Position numbers and translations under genes: made by a program
Shown here: positions 31,290-38,636 of the stretch, one piece after another
How positions within the stretch are numbered: the first letter of the stretch is position 1
Layout of the letters: every line of letters starts with the position of its first letter
Notes under the pieces: generated by a model
Told to the model about the DNA's origin: nothing
The model's database searches: none
The model's input: only the letters and a program-made list of their open reading frames with translations
NCBI RefSeq assembly: GCF_016026235.1
Contig: NZ_CP065613.1
Direction: 5' to 3' (one strand)
Origin: Escherichia coli
Lineage (GTDB): Bacteria; Pseudomonadota; Gammaproteobacteria; Enterobacterales; Enterobacteriaceae
DNA length: 64,000 nt

Positions 31290-31694
31290 CTATCCTTCCA
31301 GTTGCCCTCCTGCAGCCCCCCTCTCCCTGCTGTATACCCCGGTACCACAACGCGGGCAGCACTTTTCCCCCTCATAATCTTCGTCACACATCACACAAAA
31401 CCACTTTCTCACCTTCACCGTATAATCCGGAACCGTCATGCCCTGCAGATGCAAACGACGGGCCTCTTTCTCTGCCGGGTCAAGCCAGGTGCATCGCAGC
31501 AGGATTTTCGCAGCAACAGTCATCTGGTCATGTTCAAACCACGGCGGTTGTCCGTCATTGCCCCGCTTAAGTGTTAACGGACAACCACAGGACACACAGC
31601 ACAAAACGTCCTGTCGGTTGTTCTTCGCGGCTTCTTTCGCCGTAACAAAATGGCCTTTGCTGTCATTCGCCATATAGCAGTTCAGAATTCGCAT
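31290..31694 (-). CDS. Hypothetical Cys-rich (putative zinc-binding) protein, paralogue A
   Basis: 134-aa ORF with CxxC...PWFEH...WFCxxC...CCPRC arrangement; paralogous to the ORF at 32852-33256. Confidence 0.5.
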   Translation of the reverse strand: MRILNCYMANDSKGHFVTAKEAAKNNRQDVLCCVSCGCPLTLKRGNDGQPPWFEHDQMTVAAKILLRCTWLDPAEKEARRLHLQGMTVPDYTVKVRKWFCVMCDEDYEGEKCCPRCGTGVYSRERGAAGGQLEG

Positions 31695-31879
31695 ATCTCC
31701 TCCTTGTATCTTGACAATTGGTTAAAATAACTGTGATTAGATTTGGCAAGGTGTATGCAGCCCGATCCCTCAAGGGGTTCATAGCCCGTAGCTCAGCGAA
31801 TGGCGCATACACTGAGCCACTCATCAGAAACCCGAACAGTTGTCAGTACGCCATAACGCATTTGCAAGGATGGGTAATC

Positions 31880-32848
<969 letters not shown>

Positions 32849-32851
32849 TTT

Positions 32852-33256
32852 TTACGTGCAAGACAGTTGCTGAGCTGTCCGGGGAAGACTGAATCCTCCG
32901 GTCTGGCAGTGTGTGCAGTACCACTCCCCATAATAATCGTGGTGACATTGTCTGCAGTGCCAGCTGGCTTTACGCACCACGGGTAAGGCATCCGGTACGA
33001 ATTGCTGCAGACGTTTAATCAACTGTATTTCTCTGCGCTCCGGCCTGACATAAGGGCACTGTTGACCGTGCTCTGTCAGCCTGTCGTCAGTGTGTTCAAA
33101 CCAAGGAAGTTCAGTGTCGTATTGCGGATGGTATCTGAGTGCACTGCCACACAAGTGGCAGGTGTAGTTAGCATAAGGTGCGGCCTGTGCTGTACGGGCG
33201 CCCGTCAGACGTCCGTTGCCATCAAGAGCGATAAAGGATTTTGCGTACATAGTCAT
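32852..33256 (-). CDS. Hypothetical Cys-rich (putative zinc-binding) protein, paralogue B
   Basis: 134-aa ORF with CHLC...PWFEH...WHCRQC...CTHC; same cysteine architecture as paralogue A. Confidence 0.5.
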   Translation of the reverse strand: MTMYAKSFIALDGNGRLTGARTAQAAPYANYTCHLCGSALRYHPQYDTELPWFEHTDDRLTEHGQQCPYVRPERREIQLIKRLQQFVPDALPVVRKASWHCRQCHHDYYGEWYCTHCQTGGFSLPRTAQQLSCT

Positions 33257-33415: not shown

Positions 33416-33985
33416 TCAGCCACGACTGCAGCCAAAGTTGCGCTCACCGGTGCAGTGAGCTTTGGTATGCTCCTTCGCCAGATAGTCAGCACGTTCCAGC
33501 ACTTGCTGAAAGCCGGTGTCATCATTACGCGCCAGCCACACCGCCGGCCAGGCCGGAAAATGCACCAGCGTGGCATGGCACCCGACATCCACTCCCAGGG
33601 CACTGCACCACGCCTGTTTAATCATCCCGGCCAGTGATCCCGGAGCGCGGTAATCACCGGCACGACACCAGGTATCCCGGTTGACCAGCAGCATCAGGTG
33701 ATAGTGTTTTTTACCTTTGCACTCCCCAAACTCCCGGGCCCAGACGTAATGCAGGGTTGTGGGATGCACGCGTTTACCTTCCCGATGCTTACGTTTCTGG
33801 TAAGCGTCGATTCGGGCTTTCAGGGCATTGATGAAGCGGGATATCACAGCTGCGTCCGTTGCTGCCGGTACATCCGGGAGACGCAGGTCAACCCGCAATG
33901 CCGTCAGGCGGGGATGAACATTCAGTGCGTGCCGCACCGTCTCACGAATACGTTGCTGCCAGAAGGGGTTGTATTTGTAGGTCAT
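33416..33985 (-). CDS. YagK/YfjJ-family (inovirus Gp2-like) prophage protein
   Basis: Product starting MTYKYNPFWQQRIRETV... resembles the CP4-type YagK/YfjJ family; assigned from memory only. Confidence 0.55.
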   Translation of the reverse strand: MTYKYNPFWQQRIRETVRHALNVHPRLTALRVDLRLPDVPAATDAAVISRFINALKARIDAYQKRKHREGKRVHPTTLHYVWAREFGECKGKKHYHLMLLVNRDTWCRAGDYRAPGSLAGMIKQAWCSALGVDVGCHATLVHFPAWPAVWLARNDDTGFQQVLERADYLAKEHTKAHCTGERNFGCSRG

Positions 33986-34183
33986 GGTTAAATCTCCGTA
34001 TGGTTCATACGGAATAGCCACGTCGTAAAAAATGCGCAGAGTCCCTGAAGTGACCTCCGGCAGGACACTGTCTCAGGCACTCTGTGATAACCCGAACGGT
34101 CGTCTCCGGACTGACGGTTGAATTTTCAGCGTTGTTTTTTAATGTAAAAAACCGGTTACGGGTAAGGCTGTGAGGAGGGAGTT

Positions 34184-34384
34184 ATGGTGATACGCAAAAA
34201 GAAGTGCAGGGACTGTGGAAACGCGATTACTCATAATACAGTGTGTTGCCCGTATTGTGGTTCTGTCGACCCCTTCGGCTACTACCGGAATACAGACCGT
34301 ATCGTTACCATACTGCTGGCGCTGATTATTGTGGTCCTGCTGACTACTGTCAGCGTCAGTGTGTGTATACTGTGTAGCTGGTGA
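34184..34384 (+). CDS. Small zinc-ribbon protein with a C-terminal transmembrane helix
   Basis: 66-aa ORF preceded by a strong Shine-Dalgarno (gaggagggag). CRDCGN...CCPYCGS zinc-ribbon followed by a hydrophobic segment IVTILLALIIVVLLTTVSVSVCIL. Confidence 0.4.
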   Translation: MVIRKKKCRDCGNAITHNTVCCPYCGSVDPFGYYRNTDRIVTILLALIIVVLLTTVSVSVCILCSW

Positions 34385-35614
34385 GATAACGGTTCATGTA
34401 TCCCCTGAGCTGACAGTGTACCGTGTATATTAAGCGTAACCGACAGGTTCTCCTTCATACCATATTAAATTTTTCCAGGTATTGCCGCTGCCTTATTTCG
34501 TCCCATACAGGAAAACTCATCTGGGTTTCTGACAAATACGCGAAACTCACAGCCCCTCAATATCAACCACACGTTGTAAGCCGGTAATACCTGAAAATCA
34601 GCCTATTACCGCCCACGCCTCCGGCACCATTCCCTTTTGATTTCGAATTCTTTGTTGTCGCTATACCGCTTAATGTTCCCGGTCCTCCGGTGCAGATAAC
34701 ACCGGAGTCATCGTAGCGCTGCTTCAATATTCAGGTGACATATTTCCAGACAGAAGCCGGCGCGCGATCGTAAAGTTTGTTCATTGTCAGTTCTGCCAGC
34801 CGGTTGTCAACGGCAGAGTTAAAGGCTTCCAGCTCCGCAAGGGTAAGTTTATAACGCGTGTGGGAATTCACTTTTCCCGCGTCTCCTGACGTATTACGGG
34901 CTGCCACTTACCTGGTGTCCCGCAATACAGCCTTAGTGTTCCGTTATCGGGGATCCGGACGCACCGCAACAACCGGGGAAGTATTTCTGGTTTAGAGCAG
35001 TGTCAAGAGGGATTTCTCAGCCCCTCACTCACCGGCTCAGTCTCAAGGCAGGAGAATTAATACGCTCAGTTCATGTCTTATACAGGAATGGGCACAGGGG
35101 GAGCTAGCGTGTCACTGCTGATTTTACGCATCAGCGTTCATGTATCTGCACTCTGATACATGAACGATTCACAGCGCTCTGTTACCGGAGAGATTTACTC
35201 TCTTAGCTTACTCTGGCAAATCCTTTACGTTACTCTCTGATGACTTCTTATATTTATAATACCAATCAGACAGCCTTATCCCATCGGTGATATCAGTCTC
35301 CTCCTCGCCAGGAACGGGCTGACTCACTGTAACCACCTCCGAAAACAACTCTGCAATTATCAGAACGCCTGCTTCTCTCCCTGTCCTCACGAAAACTATC
35401 CCCTCTTTATCGCGCGTGCGTGCGGAAGCATCTTTTCGCAACAACCACCCAGTATACCGGTACGGCTCAGCCACCGCAACCTCCCCGTTTATCTCCTGGC
35501 GGTCACATTCCCGATTATTTTTTACGTTTCTCCCCGGTTGTTATGCCGGTGAAGGTGGCGCGCTGTTTTCATGACCACACCGGCTGGTTTAACAACATCC
35601 GGAGGAACATTCTC

Positions 35615-35821
35615 ATGGCTACCCCAGTTTCACTGATGGATGACCAGATGGTCGACATGGCATTTATCACTCAACTGACCGGCCTGACAGATAAGTGGTT
35701 TTACAGGCTCATCAGGGATGGGGCCTTTCCGGCTCCCATCAAGCTGGGCCGCAGCTCCCGCTGGCTGAAAAGTGAAGTGGAAGCCTGGCTGCAGGCGCGT
35801 ATTGCACAGCCCCGCCCGTAA
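35615..35821 (+). CDS. alpA: AlpA-family phage/prophage transcriptional regulator
   Basis: 68-aa product with the AlpA pattern ...ITQLTGLTDKWFYRLIRDGAFPAPIKLGRSSRWLKSEVEAWL... Confidence 0.7.
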   Translation: MATPVSLMDDQMVDMAFITQLTGLTDKWFYRLIRDGAFPAPIKLGRSSRWLKSEVEAWLQARIAQPRP

Positions 35822-35909
35822 TTTCTGACCGTTATCCGTTCACCCGCAGCAGACGTAATCCCCGGCCTGCCGGCGGCATTCTGCTGCCTGTTATATCCCC
35901 GTGAGGAAT

Positions 35910-36518
35910 ATGAAAATGAAACAACAGTATCAGACCCGCTACGAATGGCTCCACGAAAGCTACCAGAAATGGCTGACCGGCTTCACCCGGCACGCCGTAT
36001 CCTGGGGCGTGTGTCATCCGAATATCTACTACTTCCATAATCTGACGCCCGGTTGGGTGTCATTCAATGGTGAAAAACCGGAGATTGCCATCGTACCCCA
36101 GAGCCTGCACCGGCTGATTTATGGCCCTGACAAACGGGCCACGCCGCCCCTGGATGATGATCTGATCGTGAATTTATGCACCAGTGAACATCTGCTGGTT
36201 CATCATCCGATGCTGGAAGGCATTCTCCTGTCTGAATGTGAACGTCTGAGGCAGCGTTCTCTGGCAAATAAACTGATCAGCCTCTTCCGTCAGTTTGGTG
36301 GCACGGAGTTGCGCCTCAAACTGGTCTGGCTTTGCTGGCTTGATTTAATGACCGGAAACAGCCTTGAAGACTGGAAAGAGAACCTGAAACGGAAATCAGA
36401 AAAAGAGCTGGAGGAATGGATCATCAACCGTCAGAGGCAGAGCGCAGCACTGACGGATCTGATGGATCAGTACGTGCTCCTGGCATACCGCACAACGGTT
36501 GACGATAACCGCAACTGA
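35910..36518 (+). CDS. Hypothetical protein (island-encoded)
   Basis: About 200-aa ORF directly downstream of alpA with a Shine-Dalgarno (gagga) upstream of tandem ATGs; no recognisable domain. Confidence 0.5.
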   Translation: MKMKQQYQTRYEWLHESYQKWLTGFTRHAVSWGVCHPNIYYFHNLTPGWVSFNGEKPEIAIVPQSLHRLIYGPDKRATPPLDDDLIVNLCTSEHLLVHHPMLEGILLSECERLRQRSLANKLISLFRQFGGTELRLKLVWLCWLDLMTGNSLEDWKENLKRKSEKELEEWIINRQRQSAALTDLMDQYVLLAYRTTVDDNRN

Positions 36519-37718: not shown

Positions 37719-38636
37719 ATGGTTCAGAAAATTTTGTCGGATAAGGTTATGAATGAAAGAACAAATGCGTATTACTCTTATTATCTTGGAGGGCGTAATA
37801 TCTCCGTACTGCCCCTTAATGTTTATGATCCCCCGGAACGTTTTATCGCTTACATAAAAAAAAACAGAGAAAATCTGAACATCACACTTTCAGATTTTGA
37901 ACTTGAACAAATAATTTCTGGTATGCGTCTGAAGGCCCTGGCCTTCCTGGTCCCCCTGGAAAAAATATCCTGGATCGCAGGCAGTGAACGCGCATGCTTA
38001 TTTTCCTGGTATCTGTTGATGCAGTTTATCCAGAATAACAGGGCAAAAATAAGCGCAGACTTGCTTCAAAAGAATAAACTGTATCTTAAAGAAGAGTATC
38101 TGGAAGGGAATGCCTTCCCGTCGGACTCATCGACACAGTTCAGACAAATACTCAGAGTTCTCGATATTCTTTCTGATAAGAATTTGCGGGATGAGTGGAT
38201 AATCCAGACCAAAGACAGATGGATACGGGCATTTAAATCAAAGAGTCCTTTCAGTTACCTCCTCCCGGAGAACGAACATGAATGCATATGGACATGGAAT
38301 TATTTGAAGGGAAAAAATATTGCACTGGAAAAACTGGCCAGTTTTCCTGATTCTGCTGATATTTACCACGCAATTCACCTTTCATTTGACATATGGGTTA
38401 CCTGTACACTCACCTCACCTGACGATATAAAAAATTTCAGAAACAGTTTCAATAAGGCCAAGGCGCAGCGCAAGTACAAAAAAATGCAGGAAGATAAAGT
38501 CAATGTACAGTTTTTTCTTGACGCAGAAACCAGGGCGCAGCTCAAAGAATTATCGAGGGTCAGAAGACTCAGTACCGGCGAAATGCTGCATGACCTGATT
38601 GTTGAAGAGTATAAAAGGTACCGACATTCCAGATAA
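37719..38636 (+). CDS. Hypothetical protein with a C-terminal ribbon-helix-helix-like motif
   Basis: 305-aa ORF, visibly AT-rich. C-terminus VNVQFFLDAETRAQLKELSRVRRLSTGEMLHDLIVEEY resembles an RHH (CopG/Arc-type) DNA-binding module. Confidence 0.5.
   Translation: MVQKILSDKVMNERTNAYYSYYLGGRNISVLPLNVYDPPERFIAYIKKNRENLNITLSDFELEQIISGMRLKALAFLVPLEKISWIAGSERACLFSWYLLMQFIQNNRAKISADLLQKNKLYLKEEYLEGNAFPSDSSTQFRQILRVLDILSDKNLRDEWIIQTKDRWIRAFKSKSPFSYLLPENEHECIWTWNYLKGKNIALEKLASFPDSADIYHAIHLSFDIWVTCTLTSPDDIKNFRNSFNKAKAQRKYKKMQEDKVNVQFFLDAETRAQLKELSRVRRLSTGEMLHDLIVEEYKRYRHSR

Follow-up and report, generated by a model that had tools for sequence, protein, structure and literature searches.

Two described classes of protein come close in design to the one considered here. 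The zf-HC2/ZAS anti-sigma factors carry an HxxxCxxC motif followed by a transmembrane helix, and sequester a soluble partner. The ElaB/YqjD/YgaM class of Escherichia coli consists of small tail-anchored inner-membrane proteins, encoded by chromosomal core genes. In addition, several generic zinc-ribbon families, such as Zn_ribbon_3 (PF13248), Zn_Ribbon_1 (PF13240), DZR (PF12773) and zf-ChsH2 (PF12172), have two CxxC knuckles about 10 residues apart, an arrangement shared with the protein described below, and membership in them is uninformative on function. We analysed a small open reading frame (ORF) in a stretch of 64,000 nucleotides of E. coli (contig NZ_CP065613.1), called the window from here on. 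The ORF runs on the + strand from the ATG at 34184 to the TGA at 34382-34384, and its product has 66 amino acids (MVIRKKKCRDCGNAITHNTVCCPYCGSVDPFGYYRNTDRIVTILLALIIVVLLTTVSVSVCILCSW). It is a real gene for a protein with a zinc ribbon and a hydrophobic helix, of which we are highly confident. The fuller statement, that the product is a tail-anchored inner-membrane zinc-ribbon adaptor holding a soluble partner, has in our view an even chance of being correct. The gene is an uncharacterised, already catalogued member of the small zinc-ribbon membrane proteins.

The initial annotation of this locus had described a small ORF with a strong Shine-Dalgarno (SD) sequence, a zinc ribbon and one hydrophobic helix, and this anatomy is borne out by the sequence analysis (Table 1). 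The cysteine motif is C8xxC11-x10-C22xxC25. The hydrophobic segment is 26 residues long, with a top 19-residue Kyte-Doolittle window of 2.99 at residues 40-58. Before the helix there are 7 lysine or arginine residues against 3 aspartate or glutamate, and no charged residue is found beyond R39. The tail beyond the helix has at most 8 residues, all uncharged, and the positive charge is on the N-terminal side. By this positive-inside pattern, the N-terminal part is predicted to be cytoplasmic and the protein to be tail-anchored. An AlphaFold2 (AF2) model from a 23-sequence alignment, with a mean predicted local distance difference test score of 77.5, has short strands at residues 5-7 and 14-16 and a helix at residues 33-65.

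As for the ribosome-binding site, the AGGAGG core is followed by a 5-nt spacer to the ATG, or 8 nt to an in-frame GTG at codon 2. The SD region is unpaired in the minimum-free-energy fold of the RNA, and its purine-rich GAGG core is present in 6 out of 6 diverged copies. Considering all 219 ORFs of 50-100 amino acids in the window, the CxxC...CxxC motif occurs only in this one, which is also the only one to combine it with a hydrophobic segment and an SD sequence. Since 30 shuffles of the window gave no ORF with these combined features, the combination is more than chance.

The diverged copies that we compared come from E. coli chromosomes (L004-L008) and Salmonella (L012), fall into four clades and have 55-80% protein identity to the window copy. 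In codons 2-39, the ratio of nonsynonymous to synonymous substitutions (dN/dS) between clades is 0.05-0.28 in the annotated frame, with Fisher p values from 1e-2 to 7e-7. Over this segment, the ratios in the two shifted frames (0.3-3.7) show no consistent deficit, with only scattered nominal p values of 0.02-0.03. Variable sites at the first, second and third codon positions number 8, 12 and 22, respectively. Conservation in related islands, which the initial annotation had singled out as a check, is thus present: the ORF is conserved there, with fixed synteny and under purifying selection.

These numbers bear directly on the alternative that there is no gene, and that regulatory DNA or RNA serving the divergent yagK-like gene accounts for the conservation. 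As this alternative would have it, the neighbouring 198-bp intergenic region is better conserved between copies than the ORF itself. The substitutions in codons 2-39, however, are mostly at third positions and synonymous in the annotated frame only, which contradicts regulatory DNA or RNA as the source of the conservation. The independent plasmid homologues described below carry the same selection signature, and an Rfam search of the 30-40 kb region gave no match at E <= 1. We consider this alternative very improbable. A role as leader peptide or upstream ORF was also considered and is ruled out by the absence of any + strand gene within 1.2 kb downstream.

A different picture is seen in the hydrophobic half, where dN/dS between clades is 0.5-2.3 and nucleotide identity 48-64%. 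Among the island alleles, the Kyte-Doolittle value stays at 2.65-2.99 and the length at 64-66 amino acids. Because the sequence drifts while hydrophobicity and length are kept, the helix seems to be needed only as an anchor.

This pattern of selection also touches on a possible role as a small toxin of the membrane (a type I toxin, a holin or an abortive-infection effector), which would harm the inner membrane when derepressed. The small size, the strongly hydrophobic C-terminal helix and the strong SD would suit such a peptide, the island is rich in toxin-antitoxin genes (CbtA/YeeU is in the same island), and an antisense promoter-like site lies inside the ORF at 34353-34325. Nevertheless, selection acts on the zinc ribbon and not on the helix, the reverse of what is expected of a pore-forming peptide. 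The antisense site is in the non-conserved half, and such sites are at chance level, with 2 found against 2.2 expected from shuffles. RNA folding of 34120-34400 gives a z-score of only -2.3, which is not persuasive and leaves the SD open, and genomes carry up to 6 copies of the gene. With no Rfam family and an unselected helix, the locus does not resemble a type I toxin-antitoxin system of the Hok/Ldr/TisB type. Neither the ORF nor any of its seven neighbours had a match in PADLOC-DB 2.0, apart from weak helix-turn-helix-type matches for the alpA-like gene. A toxin is therefore, on these points, quite unlikely. The accessory role in phage defence or abortive infection suggested in the initial annotation is likewise unsupported, given the lack of a PADLOC match and of any intact copy in 50,697 phage records, where the sole match covered 20 residues at one end of a 4.5-kb record.

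Among 1.8 billion representative proteins, a profile search returned weak matches (E 1e-4 to 1e-5) that lead from the islands to plasmids. The relatives share more than the cysteines, namely the pattern C.DCG..(I/L)......C..C.S.DPFG..R..DR followed by a helix. When the island and plasmid alignments were compared with hhalign, the probability was 98.7% (E 2.8e-16) over 52 columns, including S.DPFG..R..DR. A single pairwise BLASTP comparison of an island with a plasmid protein gave 34% identity over 53 ungapped residues (E 1e-12). Over the 23-sequence alignment of island and plasmid relatives, the four cysteines are the sole invariant columns.

In PLSDB, relatives were found in 120 plasmids, mostly F-type of E. 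coli and Shigella, with 116 of the 120 being conjugative. Relatives also belong to an integrative and conjugative element (ICE)-type system in a Serratia plasmid and to a DotM-containing element; one example of the family is BEM75663.1 of Serratia pE36_1. These relatives are located in conjugative transfer regions, where they run antiparallel to the tra genes, and in many records they lack an annotation. For the plasmid ORFs, dN/dS is 0.08-0.15, with p down to 3e-12. The small ORF is part of an unnamed family confined to mobile elements. Its closer members are in CP4-44-type islands of Escherichia and Shigella, and in rare cases of Salmonella, and its more distant ones in conjugative plasmids and ICEs of Proteobacteria. 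In all cases, the small ORF and its relatives form transcription units of their own, with the neighbouring genes on the other strand.

In every such context, a gene for a protein of 126-148 amino acids with a TYW3-like fold runs convergently towards the small ORF, and the two overlap at their 3' ends. This pairing recurs in five different transfer-region contexts. The partner products are mutually homologous, with 44-92% identity and the motif TYASCQGHGFP...PY(V/I)AF...ES..PRL.WGW, and have no Pfam or NCBIfam match. The modestly new point of this work is that the island ORF has plasmid-borne relatives paired with a TYW3-like-fold protein.

The place of the relatives raises the possibility of an exclusion or immunity determinant, a constitutive inner-membrane protein that would block entry or establishment of a related element, as TraS/Eex-type proteins do, with the alleles setting specificity. 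The relatives lie within transfer regions next to TraG_N/TraH or TraN, and their placement on the opposite strand would make their expression independent of that of the tra operon. A genome often carries several island copies at once, and in the islands the gene has diverged more than the DNA on either side and is a mosaic, which would suit a specificity cassette. The N-terminal half of the ORF is 71-91% identical between copies, against 88-100% for the yagK-like gene and 85-96% for the intergenic region. Moreover, the two halves of the ORF group the island copies differently, and L006, for example, matches the window exactly in the yagK-like and Hha genes but has another small-ORF allele, which points to recombination among island copies as the source of the mosaic.

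On the other hand, the position in the transfer region varies (traN/trbC, traH/trbB, beside an ICE-type ATPase, near DotM), and CP4-44-type islands encode no conjugation machinery. The variable part of the protein is a plain hydrophobic helix, while the conserved part is predicted to be cytoplasmic, and no Pfam entry-exclusion family matches even at E <= 10. Exclusion is thus a rather unlikely function.

The favoured mechanism is that of a membrane adaptor. Residues 1-39 would form a cytoplasmic four-cysteine zinc ribbon followed by the DPFG..R..DR juxtamembrane motif, and residues 40-65 would cross the membrane once, with almost nothing exposed on the far side. The working part would be the zinc ribbon together with the juxtamembrane motif, with the helix as a mere anchor. 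As a membrane-tethered binding module, the protein may hold or sequester a soluble partner on the inner side of the membrane. This partner could be a protein or a nucleic acid, and could come from the element or from the host. For conjugative elements, it is likely to be the convergent TYW3-like-fold protein. Sequestration is favoured by analogy with the ZAS anti-sigma factors, and we put this part of the reading forward tentatively. The putative role as a membrane-targeted regulator, mentioned in the initial annotation, is possible and close to this reading.

Several observations weigh against this interpretation. No Pfam or NCBIfam model reaches its threshold for the protein: the best Pfam scores are generic zinc ribbons at 13.7-16.5 bits against gathering cut-offs of 23.2-29, and the best NCBIfam score is 16.6 bits against a cut-off of 32. 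No consensus sigma-70 promoter for the ORF was recognised in a scan of the + strand. When six partner proteins were used as tblastn queries, neither the window nor any of the E. coli and Salmonella island loci gave a match at E <= 1, and the partner argument would carry over to the island only by analogy. In terms of gene integrity, the L006 copy is frameshifted, the L008 copy lacks C25, and dN/dS within clade D is about 0.7. In clade C, ATC replaces the ATG, and the GTG at codon 2 may serve as start codon. Finally, a 1-nt deletion in the A5 run (34196-34200) leads to a frameshifted allele in some strains.

The deletion allele of the A5 run is common to strains from China and Pakistan and comes with a linked CAT>AAT change. 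It looks like an inherited pseudogene lineage and not a sequencing error.

Taken as signs of decay, the frameshift and Cys-loss alleles, the ratio within clade D and the missing TYW3-like partner would fit a relic, a gene that worked in an ancestral element, perhaps with this partner, and now drifts in E. coli islands. The K-12 islands have also lost the small ORF, as tblastn against CP4-57 and CP4-6 found no copy. Against this, the between-clade dN/dS of codons 2-39 accumulated within the island lineage itself, and the SD and the gene length are kept across clades. An intact annotated coding sequence (CDS) is present in 35 of 39 full or near-full copies from a spread sample of matches, about 9 in 10. 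The relic explanation has, in our judgement, a small chance of being right.

We also consider a more speculative extension of the adaptor reading, in which the two genes would form a two-part mobile-element module. The membrane zinc-ribbon half would capture or neutralise the convergent TYW3-like protein, of S-adenosylmethionine-methyltransferase fold, and the islands would have retained only the membrane half, to serve as decoy or as immunity factor against plasmids with both genes. This is a long shot. If true, it would be a new conflict or exclusion axis between islands and plasmids in E. coli.

In terms of distribution, the window copy is 100% identical to an annotated CDS in E. coli NCTC9008 (WP_001297219.1, "hypothetical protein"). 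Contigs with the exact protein number at least 1000, and its names there include "zinc-ribbon domain-containing protein". Small proteins of this kind were said in the initial annotation to be often missed, but the RefSeq Prokaryotic Genome Annotation Pipeline (PGAP) annotates this one in most genomes. A 251-bp region with the ORF is present in 3494 of 5426 complete E. coli genomes (~64%, or about two thirds), often in several places per genome (median 2, up to 6), nearly all of them chromosomal. This amounts to ~6,400 copies in E. coli, and strains CFT073 and 042 are among the carriers. The island form is rarely seen on true plasmids. Outside E. coli, the small ORF is also found in E. albertii and, in rare cases, in Salmonella.

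The scans of species-representative genomes say little on range beyond "rare outside Escherichia". The peptide-pattern scan of these genomes confirmed nothing. A 23-base DNA pattern had one match only, in a contig of 683 bp with 0.59x coverage (L009, NZ_WACP01000054.1) of a Paenibacillus tengchongensis assembly, which is probably E. coli contamination.

In the literature, no paper was found with the accession numbers or the peptide sequence of the small ORF, and the papers naming yagK/yfjJ do not discuss it. Since K-12 lacks the ORF, it was out of reach of the small-protein surveys in that strain. In practice, the present result allows the annotation of plasmids to be corrected and gives small-protein work a defined candidate, with no conceptual surprise. 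The link to unannotated ORFs in F-type transfer regions also provides a second system for studying function.

Table 1. Coordinates of the small ORF, its parts, its neighbours and one plasmid relative (positions in the window unless an accession is given).
Feature	Position	Strand	Basis or remark
Zinc-ribbon small ORF, predicted tail-anchored product	34184..34384	+	ORF list, sequence; identical to WP_001297219.1; dN/dS 0.05-0.28 in this frame only
Shine-Dalgarno region GAGGAGGGAG	34172..34181	+	core AGGAGG 34173-34178
A5 run, codons 5-6, site of 1-nt deletion allele	34196..34200	+	window aligned with L014, L015
Zinc-ribbon knuckles C8xxC11 ... C22xxC25, predicted cytoplasmic domain	34205..34258	+	alignment, AF2
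Juxtamembrane motif S27-x-DPFG-xx-R-xx-DR39, common to plasmid relatives	34262..34300	+	alignments, hhalign, BLASTP
C-terminal hydrophobic segment, residues 40-65, predicted transmembrane anchor	34301..34378	+	Kyte-Doolittle, AF2
Plasmid relative, small zinc-ribbon/DPFG/transmembrane ORF	NZ_LR882059.1 57273-57476		
Two paralogous 134-aa DUF7828 + Zn_ribbon_11 proteins	31290-31694, 32852-33256	-	downstream of yagK-like gene
Divergent neighbour, yagK/yfjJ-like "inovirus Gp2 family" gene	33416..33985	-	Pfam YagK_YfjJ_C E 1.5e-47; PGAP
198-bp divergent control region, yagK/yfjJ-like gene and small ORF	33986..34183	.	85-96% identity between copies
Convergent neighbour, Hha/YmoA-family (hha2/hha3-type) gene	34731..34907	-	Pfam HHA E 1.5e-17; PGAP
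AlpA-like helix-turn-helix regulator/excisionase gene	35615..35821	+	Pfam Phage_AlpA; PHROG excisionase/regulator families; PGAP

The window contains the CP4-44 site, flanked on one side by three tRNA-Asn genes, cbl, nac, ldtA and cobUST, and on the other by tmaR/yeeX, yeeA, sbmC and dacD. The island cargo includes a GTPase gene, an Ag43/AIDA-type autotransporter, yeeS, yeeT and the CbtA/YeeU toxin-antitoxin pair. The module around the small ORF is identical in the 7 copies examined (six from E. coli and one from Salmonella). Its order is two DUF7828 + Zn_ribbon_11 genes (-), the yagK/yfjJ-like gene (-), the small ORF (+), the Hha/YmoA gene (-), the AlpA-like gene (+) and a gene for a hypothetical protein of ~200 amino acids (+).

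The ORF had been described initially as standing alone in an ORF-poor stretch up to alpA, but the Hha/YmoA-family gene intervenes. This gene and the small ORF are convergent, and a scan recognised no terminator between them, so that their transcripts may overlap. Genes of the hha2/hha3 type are associated with pathogenic strains and the flu-yeeR cluster, regions repressed by H-NS/Hha (PMC4864382, PMC6480617). Furthermore, phage-transduced islands in Pseudomonas have a Gp2-like gene adjoining alpA among their core features (bioRxiv 10.1101/2024.08.29.610337). In CP4-44/flu-type islands, which are linked to pathogenic strains, the small ORF lies in the control region (yagK-like, hha2/3, alpA).

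Some further features of the module were observed. A perfect inverted repeat, CCGTATG-gtt-CATACGG, lies at 33996-34012, 10 nt upstream of the start codon of the yagK-like gene (33985, - strand). It is kept in 6 out of 6 diverged copies, with a spacer 5 nt longer in clade D, and may be an operator or a 5'-untranslated-region hairpin for this gene. The segment directly after the small ORF (34385-34560) differs between clades. Island copies share a conserved block at about 34580-34700 (…CACCATTCCCTTTTGATTTCGAATTCTTTGTTG…), which lies downstream of the hha-like gene. Two island genes that adjoin the alpA-like gene, at 35901-36518 (+, 205 amino acids) and 37719-38636 (+, 305 amino acids), are also conserved, with no Pfam, PHROG or PADLOC match.

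The two DUF7828 + Zn_ribbon_11 genes are present in every module copy and are uncharacterised. Between them, at about 31700-32850, there is an IS110-family transposase gene with an internal stop. This transposase gene has the identical position in the unrelated strains NCTC9008, SEC470, CD45 and CH427, and in other module copies the two genes are adjacent or overlapping. A kinship of the small-ORF protein with the Zn_ribbon_11 part of these neighbours, considered for a CCPxCG match, was dropped, as PF11682 is absent from the matches at E <= 10.

As for known families, sequence and fold both lead only to generic zinc ribbons. The best hit of the PDB sequence search has E 0.07, and the fold matches to ribosomal, Trf and reverse-gyrase zinc ribbons have a root-mean-square deviation of 1.4-1.8 A over 23-27 residues (best E 0.6). 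PHROGs gave three weak families of no assigned function. DUF2116 (PF09889, "probable treble clef") does not match the island protein at E <= 10. It does match 5 of the 23 aligned proteins below threshold, all outside the island family (best E 1.4e-4), and one plasmid-type relative is named DUF2116 by NCBI.

Compared with the ElaB/YqjD/YgaM class, the small-ORF protein is predicted to have the same cytoplasmic N-terminal part, single C-terminal helix and almost absent periplasmic tail. These proteins differ in having no zinc ribbon and no sequence similarity to it, and the comparison is one of topology only. Like the small-ORF protein, the ZAS anti-sigma factors have a cytoplasmic zinc-binding module at the N-terminus and one transmembrane helix after it, both predicted in our case. 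Their HxxxCxxC motif differs from the CxxC...CxxC found here, as H17-x4-C22xxC25 is out of register and H17 is not kept in the plasmid relatives. The zf-HC2 model gave no match at E <= 10, and no sigma factor gene is adjacent or in the module.

Finally, the plasmid forms, uncharacterised like the island protein, differ from it in having only ~34% identity, a tail of 8-22 residues after the helix, and a TYW3-like partner gene that is always present. They agree with it in length class, architecture and motif, are likewise borne by mobile elements on the strand opposite to their neighbours, and are under purifying selection.
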